Position numbers and translations under genes: made by a program
In this document: positions 43,740-57,760 of the stretch, piece after piece
How the letters are laid out: each line of letters starts with the position of its first letter
Position numbering within the stretch: the first letter of the stretch is position 1
Assembly: GCF_965152275.1 (NCBI RefSeq)
Contig: NC_134246.1
Location: 34,404,151-34,468,150, forward strand
Reading direction: 5' to 3'
Length of the DNA stretch: 64,000 bases
DNA from: Natator depressus
Taxonomy: Eukaryota
Notes under the pieces: model-generated
Database searches by the model: none
What the model saw: only the letters and a program-made list of their open reading frames with translations
Told to the model about the DNA's origin: nothing

Positions 43740-44231
43740 ATGAGGGCGGGGCTTGGTGGGTCGGGCGAGTTCGACGGTAGCCAATGGGCGGGGGCCGGAG
43801 GGGTCGTGCGAGGGGTAGTTGCTGCTTCCAGCCAGTCAGGCGGCGTGAAAGCGCTGACGATACGACGGGCTGAGCGATTGGCCAATCAGAGTTTTCAACA
43901 TGTGGGACTGATCGCCAAGGTCCAGCCAGTAAGAGAAGCCACCGGGATCACGTGGGGGAAAGCACCGTTAGTCGAGCCATTCAGGGAGCCCATTTAGAGT
44001 CACATGAGAAGGGTGACGAATCCAGCCAATGGGTGGGGAGCATTAATGTCACGTGCTGGCAATTGGCCGCCGCCAGTCAATGAGAGAACGACTTGAGCTC
44101 ACGTGATGTTGGTGTCACATGACTGCTACCAGGTCTCCTCTTGGCCAATAGGCGGCCGTCTCCCTCTCACGTGACTCAGGACATCGCTGCGGGGAGCCGG
44201 GGACGGGCGCTACGGCAGCCGGGAAGCGACG
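43740..44231 (+). promoter_or_regulatory. PIP4P1/TMEM55B promoter region: CCAAT boxes, 4 CACGTG and 2 CACATG E-boxes, three of them TCACGTGA-type (CLEAR-like)
   Basis: ccaatggg at 43772 and 44027, gccaatca at 43881, ttggccaata at 44141. atcacgtggg at 43947, gtcacgtgct at 44049, ctcacgtgatg at 44099, ctcacgtgactc at 44167, agtcacatgag at 43999, gtcacatgac at 44116. Confidence 0.6.
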
Positions 44232-44394
44232 ATGTCGGGGGACGGCGAACGCTCCCCGTTGCTGCCCGCGGAGCTCGGCGAGCCGGGCACTCCCGGGGCG
44301 GGCGGGGTCCTGGCCGGGCCTGGCGGGCTCGTGCCCTCCGCGCCGCTCCCGCCCTACGGGGGTCCCGCCGCAGAGAAGCCGGCCCCGCCCCATG
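44232..44394 (+). CDS. PIP4P1: PIP4P1 (TMEM55B) exon 1 (MSGDGERSPLLPAELGEPGTPGAGGVLAGPGGLVPSAPLPPYGGPAAEKPAPPH-G)
   Basis: Matches the human TMEM55B N-terminus (MAADGERSPLL...SAPPYG). Donor CATG|gtgagcgg, phase 1. Confidence 0.8.
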
Positions 44395-50989: not shown

Positions 50990-51240
50990 ACGGCCATATG
51001 GATCCCCCACCTCACGCAGGGCCATAGAGAGGTGTATGGGCCCACTCCCACAGCTATAGAGGGGGTGTTGAGCCCATACCTAGCTGTATGGCCCCAACCC
51101 CCCGTCATACGGCCATACAGGGGTGTCAGAGCCATAGCAGGCTGTATGGCCCACCCCCCTCCTGCCCTGTTCCCAGGACCATACAGGGGTGTTGGGACCA
51201 TATCAGGCTGCTCACAGGGCCATGTAGAGGGTGACGGGGC
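50990..51240. repeat. ~45-bp minisatellite, ~6 units (ggccatacaggggtgt..gagccata.caggctgtatggccc) immediately 3' of APEX1. Its last unit overlaps the final codons and stop
   Basis: The unit ggccatgtagagggtgac is the reverse complement of GTCACCCTCTACATGGCC (VTLYMA). The upstream units are diverged copies of it. Confidence 0.7.
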
Positions 51241-51726
51241 AGTGGTCACTGCCCATGGCCTGGGAGCGGATCTTGCTGTCGCACAGCGCCCCCAGCAGGC
51301 GCATTGAGACCAGGAAGTAGTCGAGGCGCCAGCCCACGTTCTTGGCGCGGGCATTCATCATGTAGGTCCAGAAGGTGTAGGCATGGGGCGTGTCAGGATA
51401 GAGGTGGCGGAAGGTGTCAGTGAAGCCGGCTGCCAGCAGCTCCCCAAAGCCCTGGCGCTCCTCGGGCGTGAAGCCTGCCGATTTCTTGTTGCCCTTGGGG
51501 TTCTTCAGGTCGATCTCGGCGTGGGCCACGTTGAGATCCCCGCAGAGCACCAGGGGCTTGCGAGCATCCAGCCCCTGCAGATAAGCCCGGAAGGCGGCAT
51601 CCCAGCGCTGGCGGTACTCCAGCCTCACCAGCCCCCGGCCCGCGTTGGGCACGTAGGCCGTCACCAGGAAGTGCGAGGGGAACTCGGCCGTGATCACACG
51701 ACCCTCCTGGTCGTGCTCCTCCTCGC
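51212..51726 (-). CDS. APEX1: APEX1 exon 5 (last: [41 protein letters not shown]...[13 protein letters not shown])
   Basis: ORF 51212..51808. Acceptor ctcccggcag|GCGAGG on the minus strand. The active-site block [14 protein letters not shown] and the C-terminal DHCPITL-type motif match human APE1. Confidence 0.9.
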
Positions 51727-51969
51727 CTGCCGGGAGACAAGGGGCTTGCATCAGAGGCCAAAGGGGAGAGGCCCTGGGCATAGGGGGCATGGCAAGGGAA
51801 AGGGACAAGGGGAAAGGCCAGAGGGCCTGTCCGAGGCTGTAGGTGGCACAGAGAGGGATTGGCAGGCAGTGGGCAAAGAGGGGTCTGCAGGCAGAGGTTG
51901 GTAGGGGGTATGGTGAGCAGGGAGCATGGGCTCAGCAGGCAGAGGCTGGGGGGTGGGGCAGGTCCCTAC

Positions 51970-52162
51970 CAATGCCGTAGGTGATGCTGAGCGGTTCTCT
52001 CTTGCAGAGCAGAGCCACCCCGCTGTAGCCCTCCTTGGTGCCGGCGCAGGCCCAGTACTTGTGGGGATACTCGGGCATCTCCCGCATCTCGGGGGGCAGC
52101 AGCTTCTCTGCACACTTGGTCTCCTGCAGGCACAGTACGTCGGGGTCCTCCTCACGCACCCA
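51970..52162 (-). CDS. APEX1: APEX1 exon 4 (WVREEDPDVLCLQETKCAEKLLPPEMREMPEYPHKYWACAGTKEGYSGVALLCKREPLSITYGI-G)
   Basis: ORF 51932..52159. Acceptor cctgcag|TGGGTG, donor ATTG|gtaggg. Confidence 0.9.
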
Positions 52163-54536
52163 CTGCAGGGGGAAAGCAGGGTCAGCGGGGCTGGGAGCCT
52201 TTCTCTGGGAACCTCATAGGATGAGGAAGGAACCCAGGTTTCCTGCCCCCCAACTCCACCCCACTTCCCTCCGGCTCATCCCCTCCCTCGGAGCACCTGT
52301 GTCCTCCCTGCCCCTGGCCGTGGATTTCTGGTGCTGGTTGCTGGGGACCAGCTGGACCAGCGACAGCACTTTCAGGCCAGTAAAACTGCTTCCACACTAC
52401 GGACAGTCACAGATCCAAGGCCAGAAGGGACCAGTGGGATCATTTCGTCCAACTGCTTGGATAGCACAGGCTGGCGAACCGCCCCGCAACAATTCCTAGC
52501 GCAGAGCTGTTCAAAATTGCCAGGGATGGAGAATCCACCACGACCCTTGGCACATTGTTCCAATTAGTCACCTTCATTATTGTACCCCTTATTTGTACCC
52601 CTTATTTCCAGGCTGCATCTGTCTAGCTTCAATTCCCAGAAGTAAAATAACCTCTCTGCACCTACTCCAGATTTGCCTGTTTCTTCATCCCGGAGTCGTA
52701 TGACTCCAGCGGGCCCCAGCAATGCCCTATGAGCTCCTACCCAGCTGCTTATCCACCCTCATCCCAACCCCCAAATCTTTTTCAGACTTCAGACCCATTT
52801 GAACGATCCCACTGGAACCAAACTGGGTACAAATCCAGCTGTGGACCAGGCTCGAGGGAATCAGCCATTCATGAACCCAAGTTAACTGCTTCAGTTTTTT
52901 ACAGCCGCATCATTTTCCCCCTGTCCAGCGGGATTTGGGGGATGACGAATGTCAATTTTGAGTTAAAATTTCATTCTGGGTTACGAAAAGCAAACATGTT
53001 TGGAAATTTAGGACACCCCCATGCTCCAATCCCCATTTACCAGCCAGGAAATGTAACAGAGGCAGGATGCCTAGGATTCAAATTGCCTGTTTTTCCCCTA
53101 TTCTAGGATGTCTCCAAGAGTCTCTAATTTGGAGAAGACTTAGTGAGTGCCCAAGGGACCTAGGAGTCTGGGGCAGCAGAGCGGGAAGGTCCACTAAGAA
53201 GCTGTGCGTCTCTGGCATTAGGTGACTTTTCCAACACAAGCCAACGTTCCCACAGCCCAGCCGTTGTTCACTGCGCTCAACTTGGAGGCACAAAGCAGGA
53301 GAGGAAAATGGAATAAATCTAAAAATCCAAAATTTCTAGATTTGCAAAAAAATCCTGAAGTAGTGAATGTGGGAATCCAAACTCCAGGTGGAAAATCTGA
53401 CCCATGAAATACACTGCGAAATCCCCCGCAACCTGGAAGATTTTTTCTGCAGGGAAAAAATCCCAATCCCTAACTCGGCTAGTGCACTTCTCAGCACTTT
53501 TCAGCAGAGCTCAAAGCCCCTTCCAAAGGAGGTCAGGATCCTTATCCCCACTGCATAGGTGGGGAAACAGGCATGGGGAGGGGAAGGGACTAGCCCAAGG
53601 TCACCCAGCAGGTCAATAGCAGAGCCAGGGAGAGAACCCAGAAGTCCTGGCTCCCAGCCCCACTGCTCTAACCCACTAGATCCCACTCCACTCCCCTCAC
53701 CTAGCTGGGATAGAACCCAGGAGTCCTGGCTCCCAGCCCCCTCTGCTGTAAGATCTCTAGCTGTAATCACAAGGCCACACTGCAGCCTCTGCAGGGCAGG
53801 GCCGTCCTTACCCATATGCAAATTTCCTGGTGCCTTACGCAGCTGTGTGCTGCTCCAGTGGCAGCCCGTGCCAGCCAGGAAAGCTGCCCATGCCCCTGCT
53901 CTGCCTCTTCCCCATGGCCCCCGCCCCTGCTCTGCACCAGCACCACCCCCACTCCACCCCTTCCCCTGAGCAACATCCCGGGGGACTGCAGCAGGGGTCA
54001 GGTACACCCTGCATTCATGGGGTAGCAGGAAGTGGAGCGACCCGGCCACAGCTCGCTCTGCATCGCTGGTGTGTTCTGGGGGGCAGTTCCCCCCTGCCCC
54101 CTCAAGTCCCCAAGGCTAGGAACCAGGGGAGCAGAGCGGAGCGGGCTGGGGCTGGGTCACTCCACTTCCCGCTGCCCCTGGAGTGCGGGGTCGGGCCTTC
54201 CCTGCACTCACCGGGCGGCAGGAAGTGGAGCAACCCATCTGCAACCCACTCCGCCGGCTCATGCTGGGGGGCCGTTTCCCCCCTGCCCCCCAAGCCTGCT
54301 CCTTCCCCCCCGCGGAGGCCTGGGGCCAGCCCCTCCCCCCGTGGGGGGGGGCTGTGTAGGGCACCAAAATGTCTAGGGACAGCTCTGCTGCAGGGGCAGG
54401 GGTGGCCTTAGCCCCTGGCACCCTGTTACTACCAGGTGTAGACCAGGGCCCCAACGCGGGTGGTCCAAACTGGGGAGGAGCTGCCTAGCCCAGCGAGGAC
54501 TGGCAGAGCTCAGCGCCCTGAGAGAGCTGCTCCTAC

Positions 54537-54724
54537 CTCCAGGCCCTTCTTCTTGACCCAGGCCCGGAGCCCATCCACGTTCCACGATGTGACCTTCAGG
54601 GTGTACTTCTGCCCACCGGGAGAGATGAGCTTGTCGGGCGGATCCTGGTACAGGATGGGGCCCTCCGCCACCTTCTCCTTGGGGCCCTTCGCTGCCCCCT
54701 TCTTGCTCTTCTTTGCCCCAGGCT
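54537..54724 (-). CDS. APEX1: APEX1 exon 3 ([63 protein letters not shown])
   Basis: Acceptor ctccccag|AGCCTGG, donor CTGGAG|gtaggagc. Matches human APE1 residues ~20-83, including the lysine-rich NLS/redox N-terminus. Confidence 0.85.
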
Positions 54725-55005
54725 CTGGGGAGCAGAAGAGAGAAGGAAAGCTGGGACGTGGTGCTGAGCAGCCGGGGGGGTGCCAAGAACATAAGGACGT
54801 AAGAATGGCCCTAGTGGGTCAGACCAAAGGTCCATCCAGCCCTCCTAGCATCATACACAAGGAATGATGGGGGATTGCCATTCCGCACGGACTGGAGCGG
54901 GGCTCAGAAGGGGGCACCGTGCCGCGAGGAGTGCAGTGGGGAACACAAGCGGGCACCAGGGAGCAGGGAGGGGTCGCTGTGCCACAGGGAGTGGGCCGCG
55001 GTTAC

Positions 55006-55066
55006 CTGTGGCCTCGAACTCGTCCGTGCTGTCCACATCCTCTGCCTTCTTCCCCCGTTTGGGCAT
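55006..55066 (-). CDS. APEX1: APEX1 exon 2, coding part (MPKRGKKAEDVDSTDEFEAT-). The exon probably extends to 55091 as 5' UTR
   Basis: ATG at 55066-55064 on the minus strand. MPKRGKK is the canonical APE1 start. Donor CACAG|gtaaccgc, candidate acceptor gctcctcag|CACAGG at 55091. Confidence 0.8.
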
Positions 55067-55239
55067 CTCACTCCACCAGCTGGGCCCTGTGCTGAGGAGC
55101 CGACACTGCCAAGCTGCGAGCCGCAGGATCCTGAGGGCAGCGTGTGGGGGGGAGAGGAATGGGCACAAGGCAATCAGCACCAGGGGCACAGGCCATGGAC
55201 CCAGCAGTCCAGAGAACCAGGGAGGACAGGCCAAAAGCC

Positions 55240-55640
55240 CATTCCTGCTCCCCAGCCAATCACAAACCTTCTTGCATTATAGTCTCCCCAAACCCTGGCC
55301 AATTACAGAGCTCCTTGCACAATAAACCCCCTGCTCCCCGGCCAATCCCAATCGCAGTCCTCCTTGCACAATAAACACCCATCTCCCCTGCCAATTAACA
55401 CCCACCCCCCTGGCCAATCATAGCCCTCCTAGCATGATACACACCCACCCGCTCCCGGGCCAATCACAGAGCTCCTCGTACAATAAACTCCCTGTTCTCT
55501 GGCCAATAGCAGCCCTTCTTCCACACCAAACACCCACCCACTCCATAGACAATCACAGAGCTCCTGGCACAATAAACAACCAACCTCCCCGGCCAATAAA
55601 CACCCACCTCCCTGGCCAATCGCAGCCCTCCAGCGCAAGA
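55240..55640. repeat. ~60-bp tandem repeat, ~7 units, each carrying a GGCCAAT (CCAAT box) and CAATAAAC (ccccggccaataaacacccacctccctggccaatcacagagctcctggcacaataaac), inside APEX1 intron 1 and 400-800 bp upstream of the OSGEP start
   Basis: Seen in sequence. CCAAT boxes at ~55247, 55300, 55334, 55399, 55449, 55500, 55583, 55612. Confidence 0.8.
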
Positions 55641-55659
55641 ACCCCGCCCCCTCTCTCAC

Positions 55660-55730
55660 CGTCCGGCTCCCGGCCACTCAGGACCCGCTCCGAGCCCCGC
55701 GCGCCCCACAACCCGTCCGAGGACAAAGCG
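55660..55730 (-). other. APEX1: APEX1 non-coding exon 1 (5' UTR), predicted from the donor CGGACG|gtgagag
   Basis: Human APEX1 has a non-coding first exon. The donor lies directly downstream of the E-box/GC-box promoter. The TSS is not determinable from sequence. Confidence 0.4.
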
Positions 55731-56030
55731 CCGTAGGTTCCGAGGGGCACACGTGCGGGCGCGGTCACGTGCCGGGGAAAGGGCGGGGCTAGAGCGCTGC
55801 GCTGTCACGTGCTGGAGCCCTGGGGCTGCGGCGGACTGTGGGGAGCGGACGGCCGTGGGCGGGACTCCCGTGTCACGTGAGGCGGGAGCGGCCAGGAACT
55901 CCGGTGTCACGCGGGGCGGGAAGGAGAGTGGTCATCGCGCTCCGGTGTCACGTGGGGTGAGAGGGGCGGGGCTGCGTTGTGACTTAGCAGCGCGAGGACG
56001 CCGGGCTGCATGCGCCGCGCCGGACCCGCC
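55731..56030. promoter_or_regulatory. APEX1/OSGEP bidirectional promoter: array of 4 GTCACGTG E-boxes plus ACGTG and GTCACGCG variants at ~35-70-bp spacing, with GC boxes (GGGCGGGG)
   Basis: cacgtg at 55766, 55806, 55874 and 55949. acgtg at 55752. gtcacgcg at 55906. gggcgggg at 55781, 55857, 55913 and 55964. Confidence 0.6.
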
Positions 56031-56151
56031 ATGCCCGCGGTGACGGTGCTGGGGCTGGAAGGCAGCGCCAACAAGGTGGGGACGGGGCTGGTGCGGGACG
56101 GGCAGGTGCTGAGCAACCCCCGCCGGACCTTCGTGCCCGCGCCGGGCCAGG
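56031..56151 (+). CDS. OSGEP: OSGEP exon 1 ([41 protein letters not shown])
   Basis: Matches the human OSGEP N-terminus [39 protein letters not shown]. Donor CAGG|gtgagccgg. An in-frame upstream ATG at 56010 is less likely. Confidence 0.85.
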
Positions 56152-57760
56152 GTGAGCCGGGGCCTCCCCGTCCTTACCCGTCCCCCCCCCGGCCCCCCCT
56201 TTCCTTACCCATCCCCCCCCGCGCCCCTCCCCTGCCCCGGGCCCTCCCGTCCTTACGCATCCCCCCCCACGCGCCCCTCCCCCTCCCCGGGCCCCCCTGT
56301 CCTTACCCATCCCCCCCGTGTCCCTCCCCTGCCCCGGCCCCCCCCCCGTCCTTACCCATCCCCCCCCCGTGTCCCTCCCCTGCCCCGGCCCCCCCCCCGT
56401 CCTTACCCATCCCCCCCCCGTGTCCCTCCCCCACCCAGGGACCCAGCCCCCCCATCCTTACCCATCCCCCTCCCCCACCCTGGGACACCCCCCCCAGGCC
56501 TCCCCGTCCTTACCCCTCCCTCCCCTGGGACCCTTCCCTCCCCCGTCCCCGGGCCTCCCCGTCCTTTCCCATCTCCATCTTCCCTCCGTCTGCCCCCCAG
56601 GCCCCATACACATAGACAGACACACACACACACAGCCGGGCCTCCCTGTCCTTACCCATCTGCCCCCCATCCCTCCTGCGCCCCTACCCTGCTCTGGGAC
56701 CTTTCCCCCCCACAGGCCTCCCCATCCTTACCCATTCCCATCCTCCCTCTGTCTGCCCCCTATCCCCCCTGCGCCCCACCCCGAGACACTCCCCCCCCCT
56801 TCTCCCCGGGCCTCCCTGTCCTTAGCGGTCCTACCGTGCCCTGGGACACCCCCCGCCCCTCCGGGGCCTCCCCATCCTTACCCATTCCCCGTCCGCCCAC
56901 CAGCCCTGACACACACCCCCACACCCCGGGCCTCCATGTCCTTACCCATCCACCCCCCATCCCTCCTGTGCCCCTACCCTGCTCCGGGACACCCCCCCAC
57001 CCCCCACGGGCCTCCCCATCCTCCCTCCGTCTGCCCCCTATCCCCCCTGCGCCCCCACCCCGAGACACTCCCCGTTCTTACCGGTCCTACCCTGCCCTGG
57101 GACACACCCCCCCCCCCCGGGGCCTCCCCGTCCTTACCCATCCCCATCGCTCCTCTGTCCGCCCCACTGCTCCAATACACACGCACCCGGGCCTCCCCTA
57201 GGAGCTCCCCGTTGCGAGCCTCCCCAGAACCCCTGCTGGGACCCCCAGTCCTTTACCCATCCTCTCTCCGTCCGCCCCGCCCCAGGACCCCCAACCTCTC
57301 CCCTGATCCCCATCCCTCCTGCGCCCCCCCTGGGGCCTCCCCATCCCGGGCCTCCCCAGGACTTCCGCTGGGACCCCCCCCCCATCCTTACTCATTTCTT
57401 CCTCCATCCGCCTCCCCAGGACCCTGCCTGGGTCTCCCAATCCTGAGCCGCTCTGGGACTCTCGCTGGGACCCCCCCCATCCTTACCCATCCACCCACTG
57501 TCCACCCCGGGACCCCCCAACCTCCGCCCCGATCCCCATTCCCCCTGCGCCCCTACCCTGCCCTGGGACCCCCCACTGGCCTCCCCATCACGAGCCTCCC
57601 CGGGACCCCTGCTGGGACCCCCTTCATCCCCATCCCCATCCCCACCCCGCCTGGGCCTCCCCATCCCGAGCCTCTCAGGGACCCCCGCTAGGACCCCTCC
57701 CTTTCCTTACCCATCTTCCCACCGTCCACCCTCCTGCCCCGGGACCCCCCCCCCAACCTC
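56150..57760. repeat. 1.6-kb C-rich minisatellite (ccgtccttacccatcccccccccgtgtccctcccctgccccggccccccc, ~60-bp unit, ~25 units) filling most of OSGEP intron 1
   Basis: Seen in sequence. It is the source of the 457-aa and 349-aa proline-rich ORFs at 56318..57691 and 56152..57201 and of the G-rich ORFs on the minus strand. A C(21) run lies at 57960-57980. Confidence 0.9.

Follow-up and report, generated by a model that had tools for sequence, protein, structure and literature searches.

What kind of promoter lies between two essential housekeeping genes that are transcribed away from each other, and what part do the repeats beside it play? This question is raised by the interval between APEX1 and OSGEP in the flatback turtle (Natator depressus), contained in the 64-kb stretch of DNA analysed here (the window, to which all coordinates refer). 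APEX1 is involved in redox regulation as well as base-excision repair, OSGEP takes part in the synthesis of t6A in tRNA, and studies of their joint promoter have been confined to mammals. The turtle interval combines a CpG-island core, rich in E-boxes and GC boxes, with a CCAAT-box minisatellite on its APEX1 side. The interest of the locus comes mainly from the deep positional conservation of this minisatellite, whose units continue to turn over: an array in the same position and orientation was found in all nine of the archelosaur genera sampled (Natator, six other turtle genera, alligator, and ostrich).

Identity and Layout of the Locus

The APEX1 exons of the window are 100% identical to the flatback turtle protein, and a Natator chromosome assembly matches the window with 99.5% identity over 21 kb, with OSGEP (TsaD domain), APEX1, TMEM55B, and PNP called there. 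The gene order, in the orientation of the window, is PNP (minus strand), PIP4P1/TMEM55B (plus strand), APEX1 (minus strand, coding sequence 51212-55066), and OSGEP (plus strand, ATG at 56031). APEX1 and OSGEP are arranged head-to-head, with 964 bp separating their start codons (APEX1 ATG 55066, OSGEP ATG 56031). Orthologous loci were obtained through APEX1 proteins from turtles, alligator, ostrich, and one gecko (~130 kb in all); the same pairing was present in five turtle loci, alligator, gecko, and ostrich, and the orthologous OSGEP gene calls carry the PF00814 TsaD domain. Head-to-head pairing of OSGEP and APEX is also described for mammals (PMC3418287, PMC3121118). Protein homology and orthologous gene calls bear out the gene identities and orientation proposed in the initial annotation, and the APEX1 exon-1 donor that it placed at 55660 is real as sequence. 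The gene parts bordering the promoter are as follows:

55006..55066, minus strand: first coding exon of APEX1, coding part (ATG 55066-55064, donor after 55006; translation MPKRGKKAEDVDSTDEFEAT)
55092..55659, minus strand: putative APEX1 intron 1, in the 5' untranslated region (5'UTR) (donor G/GTGAGA from 55659; acceptor CAG 55094-55092 or 55082-55080)
56031..56151, plus strand: OSGEP exon 1, coding part (donor GT at 56152)

The APEX1 ATG is kept in all turtle loci compared, and the candidate acceptors give a 5' end of the first coding exon at 55079 or 55091. The donor G/GTGAGA (55660/55659, minus strand) is also found in Trachemys in the alignment, and in Caretta a CAG acceptor survives a 12-bp deletion. 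Exon 1 of mammalian APEX1 is non-coding, and by analogy 55092-55659 is putatively assigned as a 5'UTR intron of APEX1 that contains the array.

A CCAAT-Box Minisatellite Beside the CpG Island

Two features of the interval carry the CCAAT motif or its remains:

55244..55640, plus strand: CCAAT-box minisatellite, about nine units of 43-46 bp (consensus CCTGCTCCCCGGCCAATCACAGAGCTCCTTGCACAATAAACAC) and two 23-bp hybrid units
55669..55686, plus strand: promoter-proximal CCAAT-box relic (CCCGGCCACTCAGGACCC; repeat family D4 and alignment)

Tandem Repeats Finder (TRF) detected periods of 43 and 23 in the array, and the repeat-family search recovered nine copies (family D1) spaced 43, 49, 23, 43, 46, 43, 46, and 24 bp apart. 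A full unit is composed of a head half (CTCCCCGGCCAATCACAGAG) and a tail half (CTCCTTGCACAATAAACACCCAC), and the two short units of 23 bp, at 55391 and 55593, are hybrids of head and tail. Ten CCAAT boxes occur on the plus strand of a 421-bp segment that contains no ATTGG, compared with 1.7 expected, a count reached by none of 5000 shuffles. Seven of the ten read exactly GGCCAAT, and four (55256, 55414, 55460, and 55616) fit RRCCAATSR, that is, have NF-Y-type flanks. The repeat had been described initially as a 60-bp unit present about seven times in forward orientation and as one of two modules from which the promoter is built. Its existence at 55244-55640 and the uniform orientation of its boxes stand, but TRF, the repeat-family search, and direct CCAAT spacing all rule out a 60-bp period; the seven exact GGCCAAT are the probable source of the earlier copy number. 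Units of 61 bp were seen in Carettochelys alone, each the sum of a full and a short unit. With a GC content of 56% and a CpG observed/expected ratio (o/e) of 0.42, the array is a low-CpG block outside the island core (74% GC, o/e 1.02), so the core cannot be said to be built from it.

Haplotype polymorphism within Natator was considered and rejected, as two assemblies are 99.7-99.8% identical in both the CCAAT and the E-box modules, with equal copy number. A structured RNA was likewise discarded, with no Rfam match in 54000-57500.

The proximal CCAAT box is intact (GGCTCCCGGCCAATCAGG) in Trachemys and Gopherus and mutated to CCACT (55677) in all three sea turtles. The core string of the array unit is the same as this proximal box of Trachemys and Gopherus, and the array is therefore read as the promoter's own CCAAT box in amplified form, with the proximal box as its likely founder.

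The tail half of the turtle units (55319-55605) contains a second conserved motif, CAC(A/T)ATAAACACC, whose reverse complement TGTTTAT is forkhead-like and which also reads AATAAA on the plus strand (TATAAA in Carettochelys). This motif is retained in the 39-bp variant of Carettochelys, present in 40 copies without CCAAT; the units of alligator and ostrich lack it. A separate 22-nt segment in APEX1 intron 2 (54838-54859) matches the array unit at 55422-55443 with 95% identity (AGCCCTCCTAGCATGATACACA) and recurs in Chelonia, Caretta, and Trachemys. The sequence beside it (GGCCCTAGTGGGTCAGACCAAAGGTCCATCCAGCCC) is TE-like (transposable element-like) in appearance. Gene conversion, a relic unit, or chance could each account for the match.

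Conservation and Turnover of the Array

The array was recovered at the same place in each archelosaur genus, in forms that differ widely in copy number, and not in the gecko:

Natator: as described above
Chelonia and Caretta: layout as in Natator, 96-98% identical
Trachemys: degenerate, 6 CCAAT
Gopherus: degenerate, 9 CCAAT
Chelydra: 43 bp x6.3, 100% identity
Carettochelys: ~2.7 kb, composed of 61 bp x6, 40 bp x11, and 39 bp x40 (CCAAT changed to CCGAT in the 39-bp set)
Alligator: 40 bp x16, with a 120-bp higher-order repeat
Ostrich: 70 bp x7.3, with perfect AGCCAATCAG boxes
Gecko (Paroedura): array absent; a single CCAAT lies within a group of four clustered CACGTG

The CCAAT boxes are always on the OSGEP strand, and no ATTGG was found in the intergenic interval of any turtle, alligator, or ostrich locus. 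The NF-Y-type consensus RRCCAATSR is fitted by 13 of the 19 alligator boxes and 9 of the 10 ostrich boxes. A profile of the turtle units, searched with nhmmer, gave 12 matches in the alligator array, all on the expected strand; outside the arrays, its matches were marginal (E~0.45) and corresponded to the 22-nt segment of APEX1 intron 2 in three turtle loci. The consensus units of turtle, alligator, and ostrich have CCCGCTCC..GCCAATC in common, with GCCAATC as their only invariant block, and diverge in their 3' part. These similarities indicate that the array is orthologous across turtles and alligator, and probably ostrich. It is read here as predating the turtle-archosaur split, roughly 250 million years ago, with lineage-specific turnover of its units since then, the homology of the ostrich array being the less certain part of this reading.

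Two assemblies of Alligator mississippiensis differ in the array by exactly three 40-bp units, i.e., one 120-bp repeat (19 vs. 16 CCAAT), and the older one has 107 N in this stretch; the difference may reflect polymorphism in copy number or, alternatively, a collapsed assembly.

The older, non-homogenised arrays allow the boxes to be compared with the rest of the unit. In ungapped columns, the CCAAT pentamers of Natator are 93% identical to Trachemys versus 81% at other array positions (P = 0.03), and 93% identical to Gopherus versus 76% (P = 0.004). Conservation in all three lineages was observed for 37/50 CCAAT positions versus 193/371 others (P = 0.002). Since pentamer identity exceeds the background of the array, the CCAAT boxes appear to be modestly constrained.

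E-Box and GC-Box Modules of the Island Core

The core of the CpG island, within which both transcription start sites (TSSs) are presumed to lie, contains six E-boxes, named here E0 to E5 in order:

55661..56030, unstranded: 370-bp CpG-island core, from the putative APEX1 exon-1 donor to the OSGEP ATG (GC 74%, CpG o/e 1.02)
55748..55771, plus strand: E0 (CACACGTG, 55748) and E1 (GTCACGTG, 55764), followed by the GC box GGGCGGGGC at 55781
55804..55811, plus strand: E2 (GTCACGTG), whose context GCGCTGTCACGTGCTGG repeats that of E1 (family D7)
55865..55967, plus strand: E3 (GTCACGTG, 55872), E4 (GTCACGCG, 55906), and E5 (GTCACGTG, 55947), in three ~34-41-bp modules CTCCsGTGTCACGyGrGGyGrGA

The four perfect E-boxes and two variants claimed initially were thus located, the exact octamer GTCACGTG on the plus strand at 55764, 55804, 55872, and 55947 and the variants CACACGTG and GTCACGCG at 55748 and 55906. 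The exact octamer occurs six times in the 64 kb, compared with 0.46 expected, and four of the six are in the island, all on the plus strand. In local, dinucleotide-preserving shuffles of 55661-56030 (n = 5000), the mean was 0.20 for CACGTG (5 observed) and 0.03 for the octamer (4 observed), and none of the shuffles matched these counts. GC boxes (GGGCGG) are found 3' of E1, E4, and E5, with a fourth between E2 and E3; each of the E3-E5 modules is followed by a GC-rich stretch, with GGGCGG at 55914 after E4 and at 55964 after E5.

Four of the five CACGTG of the core are in the form GTCACGTG, a class-B E-box with T at -4, as in USF and MiT/TFE sites. USF, TFE3/TFEB, MAX/MYC, and BHLHE40 are all candidate binders of this motif.

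The contexts of the E-boxes are also repeated. Family D5 comprises three copies of 28 nt with 75-82% identity, corresponding to the E3-E5 modules, and family D7 two copies of 17 nt with 88% identity, with GCGCnGTCACGTGCyGG common to E1 and E2. With the octamer excluded, the flanks of the six E-boxes gave a mean of 14.5 matches versus 11.3 for random positions of the same island (P~2e-4), and the signal was strongest for E3-E5 (mean 19/36 vs. 11.2, P<2e-4). Flank similarity extending beyond the motif makes an old local duplication of an E-box and GC-box module plausible, and a common E-box and GC-box grammar may add to it. Repeated contexts and an origin by tandem duplication, both proposed in the initial annotation, are consistent with this similarity and with the head-to-tail order of the modules. 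The E-box series is not periodic in the sense then proposed, as the start-to-start spacings of 16, 40, 68, 34, and 41 bp are quasi-regular and their unevenness (16-68 bp) rules out strict periodicity; TRF called no tandem array across the E-box region, where the similarity is too decayed for its detection.

The positions of the E-boxes are orthologous in Cheloniidae, Emydidae, and Testudinidae. Between Natator and Trachemys, the E-box hexamers are identical at 36/36 positions versus 74% across the remaining island sequence (P = 4e-5, Fisher test), on which basis the E-boxes are clearly constrained; the comparison with Gopherus was not significant, owing to a deletion. The CACGTG of E2 is retained in Trachemys, and E3-E5 are conserved in Trachemys and Gopherus. 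The module formed by E0, E1, and the GC box is recognisable in Carettochelys and alligator, and the gecko (Paroedura) has an E5-like and GC-box-like module, TCACGTGgagagggaggagggcggggct; E-box clusters are also present in both alligator and gecko. The deletion in Gopherus flavomarginatus spans 53 bp (window 55769-55821) and removes E1 and E2 together, leaving GGTCACGGGG, so the number of E-boxes is not fixed among turtles.

Proposed Mechanism and Alternative Explanations

The proposed model has two components. In the island core, five modules of ~35-40 bp, each with a CACGTG-type E-box and most with a GC (Sp1-type) box after it, would have arisen by old local duplications and would now be kept by purifying selection. 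They would most likely be bound by USF-type or related basic helix-loop-helix leucine zipper (bHLH-ZIP) factors together with Sp1, and would drive both genes. The array, on the APEX1 side, most likely falls in the 5'UTR intron of this gene, 300-700 bp before the OSGEP ATG, and would have begun when the proximal CCAAT box (GCTCCCGGCCAATCA) was amplified in tandem. It would have been in place since before turtles and archosaurs diverged, each lineage then expanding, contracting, and homogenising the units on its own. Such an array could supply many NF-Y sites in the same orientation, about four helical turns apart, which may hold the island flank in an open state and raise the activity of the bidirectional promoter, as do the ABO 43-bp minisatellite and the U3 repeats of the long terminal repeat (LTR) LTR12. 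The combination, in which the E-box and GC-box modules drive both genes and the adjacent array is a multi-copy NF-Y platform that raises their output, is given about an even chance of being correct. The stronger proposal, that the array has been a selected regulatory minisatellite since before the turtle-archosaur divergence, its copy number and NF-Y core being kept through turnover (concerted evolution), is offered tentatively and could well be wrong; such an array would be dosage-tunable and could replace the proximal box mutated in sea turtles.

Several observations weigh against this model. Only the four Natator boxes listed above have good NF-Y flanks, and single boxes have decayed in Trachemys (CCAAC, CCGAT, CCAGT) and in Gopherus. 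The largest sub-array of Carettochelys (39 bp x40) has CCGAT in place of CCAAT; expansion of the array does not, therefore, need the CCAAT box, and together with the scattered box losses this indicates that array dynamics are not strictly box-dependent. The CpG o/e of 0.42 in the Natator array is unlike that of a protected CpG island. The array would also lie several hundred bp from either likely TSS, and probably more than 100 bp, beyond the -60 to -100 at which NF-Y boxes usually stand. A fixed requirement for E-boxes is difficult to reconcile with the ostrich locus, which has no CACGTG at all, with the loss of E1 and E2 in Gopherus, and with the lack of any TRF tandem repeat call for the E-box region. 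The homology of the ostrich array rests on its position and a core of ~18 nt, as the turtle-unit profile found no match in ostrich.

The most serious competitor, quite possible although short of an even chance, is that the array is a neutral minisatellite that perpetuates itself by slippage and unequal exchange, its CCAAT copied from a founder segment that happened to contain the box, with regulation confined to the CpG-island core (E-boxes, GC boxes, and proximal CCAAT box). Growth of the CCGAT variant to ~40 copies in Carettochelys is in line with such a process, and the Chelydra, ostrich, and alligator arrays, 85-100% homogenised, testify to recent turnover; the three-unit difference between the alligator assemblies (19 vs. 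16 CCAAT), the boxes lost in Trachemys and Gopherus, the low CpG o/e, and the few good NF-Y flanks in Natator (4/10) fit it as well. A neutral array would not, however, be expected to conserve CCAAT more than the rest of the unit where homogenisation has not erased the record (P = 0.002-0.03), to keep GCCAATC as the sole invariant block of the turtle, alligator, and ostrich consensus units, to persist in 9/9 archelosaur genera, or to hold consensus-quality boxes in nearly all ostrich and alligator units (9/10 and 13/19 RRCCAATSR). It is unlikely, by comparison, that the array is an upstream promoter of APEX1 and not an intron, with APEX1 transcription starting at ~55100-55240 from inverted CCAAT boxes and the island core serving essentially as the OSGEP promoter. 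Inverted CCAAT boxes are normal in NF-Y promoters, the acceptor candidates of Natator have weak polypyrimidine tracts, and in ostrich only ~55 bp, where GC boxes are present and a convincing splice acceptor is lacking, separate the array from the APEX1 ATG. Yet the strong donor G/GTGAGA at 55660/55659 is kept in Trachemys, the CAG acceptor is preserved despite the 12-bp deletion of Caretta, 55100-55240 is not CpG-island-like, and the non-coding exon 1 of mammalian APEX1 favours an intron.

A lineage-specific transposon fragment had been named initially as a finding that would overturn the promoter model, and an origin of the repeats from a transposable element (e.g., an LTR with U3 enhancer repeats such as LTR12) or from a dispersed satellite that landed by chance is now considered highly improbable. 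The array formally resembles the LTR12 U3 repeats (~41 nt, with CCAAT, in 5-17 copies), and the 22-nt match in APEX1 intron 2 (54838-54859, 95%) lies beside the sequence of TE-like appearance. Apart from this match, BLAST and nhmmer searches of the 64-kb window and of ~130 kb from orthologous loci turned up nothing further; turtles, alligator, and probably ostrich have the array at an orthologous site and in the same orientation; the core of the unit equals the promoter's own proximal CCAAT box; and no LTR, target-site duplication, or open reading frame features were seen, nor a match to an Rfam family.

If the arrays are functional, they provide a natural test of the way in which NF-Y site number tunes a promoter that fires in two directions, and they would show how regulatory tandem repeats can hold their position for very long while their units are replaced. 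Should the array prove to have been selected, it would be a rare and datable case of a transcription-factor-site array conserved by turnover and not by constancy of sequence. A neutral array would still be a well-dated case of long minisatellite persistence seeded from a promoter element.

Neighbouring Features

The neighbouring head-to-head promoter of PIP4P1 (TMEM55B) and PNP (43750-44232) also combines E-boxes with CCAAT boxes. It contains four CACGTG (TGTCACGTGCTGG, CTCACGTGATG, CTCACGTGACTC, and ATCACGTGGGG), two TCACATGA-type sites, and several CCAAT/ATTGG, in a pattern resembling that of the coordinated lysosomal expression and regulation (CLEAR) network (TFEB/TFE3). The 13-mer TGTCACGTGCTGG recurs unchanged at E2 (55803-55815). 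Since sites of the GTCACGTG type are found in this neighbouring promoter too, the motif is not peculiar to that of APEX1/OSGEP.

The other flank of the island is occupied by a second tandem array:

56163..56573, plus strand: C-rich minisatellite at the start of OSGEP intron 1, ~51/98-bp units with GTCCTTACCCATCCCCCCCC, 63% C

C-rich arrays occur at the same place of OSGEP intron 1 in Chelonia, Caretta, Trachemys, Gopherus, and ostrich, and not in alligator. The island core is thereby flanked on both sides by tandem arrays that are C-rich on the plus strand (GC skew -0.5 and -0.7).

A public Natator gene model (P0001, 320 aa) begins at an internal ATG (MFLAPPRLL..., window 54792) within APEX1 intron 2, a start that differs from the conserved MPKRGKK start and is probably an annotation artefact.

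Comparison with Known Systems

On a limited literature search, the CCAAT minisatellite at this locus appears to be undescribed in turtles, crocodilians, and birds. The motif repertoire itself (CCAAT, E-box, and GC box) adds nothing new to known promoter logic. The human and mouse OSGEP/APEX promoter is given as bidirectional, with a CCAAT box and an Sp1 site validated in 2002, in PMC3121118 (table 3) and PMC3418287, where the work on the mammalian promoter is cited as Seki et al. 2002 (Gene 285:101) and Ikeda et al. 2002 (BBRC 296:785); putative Sp1, USF, and CCAAT-like sites were predicted by computer in the human APE1 promoter (PMC2275136). The USF/NF-Y-type architecture put forward in the initial annotation agrees with this published combination of Sp1, CCAAT, and predicted USF sites; as a regulatory model it is not new, the CCAAT box and the Sp1 site of this gene pair having been validated in 2002.

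The turtle locus has the same head-to-head pair, a CpG-island promoter, and the same three motif classes as its mammalian counterpart, which is TATA-less and in which the CCAAT box and the Sp1 site are experimentally required and the USF site is predicted. Unlike the mammalian promoter, known here from literature descriptions as having single boxes, that of the turtle has its CCAAT box amplified into ~400 bp of minisatellite and shows five to six occurrences of the E-box/GC-box module, and in sea turtles the proximal CCAAT box is mutated (CCACT).

A further parallel is the 43-bp minisatellite upstream of ABO, which is bound by NF-Y (PMC7187371). As in the turtle, its tandem units each have a CCAAT box, with the same 43-bp period; the ABO units are present in one or four copies, are bound by CBF/NF-Y, and have enhancer activity through NF-Y (Kominato 1997). 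However, the ABO array lies ~3.8 kb upstream and is primate-specific and allele-polymorphic, whereas the turtle array abuts a CpG island, is probably intronic, and would be older than the turtle-archosaur split. The two have no sequence homology, and the NF-Y sites of the turtle array are predicted only.

NF-Y also binds the ~41-nt U3 repeats of LTR12 (PMC11853044). These ERV9/LTR12 repeats (~41 nt x5-17, with NF-Y, GATA-2, and MZF1) resemble the turtle array in having tandem units of ~40 bp, a conserved CCAAT, and a variable copy number, and NF-Y keeps their chromatin open. LTR12 is nonetheless an LTR of retroviral origin that occurs dispersed and has a TSS of its own, whereas the array described here is single-copy in the DNA searched, orthologous in reptiles and birds, and apparently derived from the box of its host promoter.

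Several regularly spaced NF-Y boxes are also characteristic of multi-CCAAT cell-cycle and housekeeping promoters such as TOP2A, CCNB1/2, and CDC25C. In these, two to five boxes stand at intervals of ~31-33 bp, none more than 200 bp from the TSS, and do not form minisatellites, whereas the arrays at the APEX1/OSGEP locus are made of true tandem units, with 10-30 boxes spaced 40-46 bp apart, or 70 bp in ostrich.

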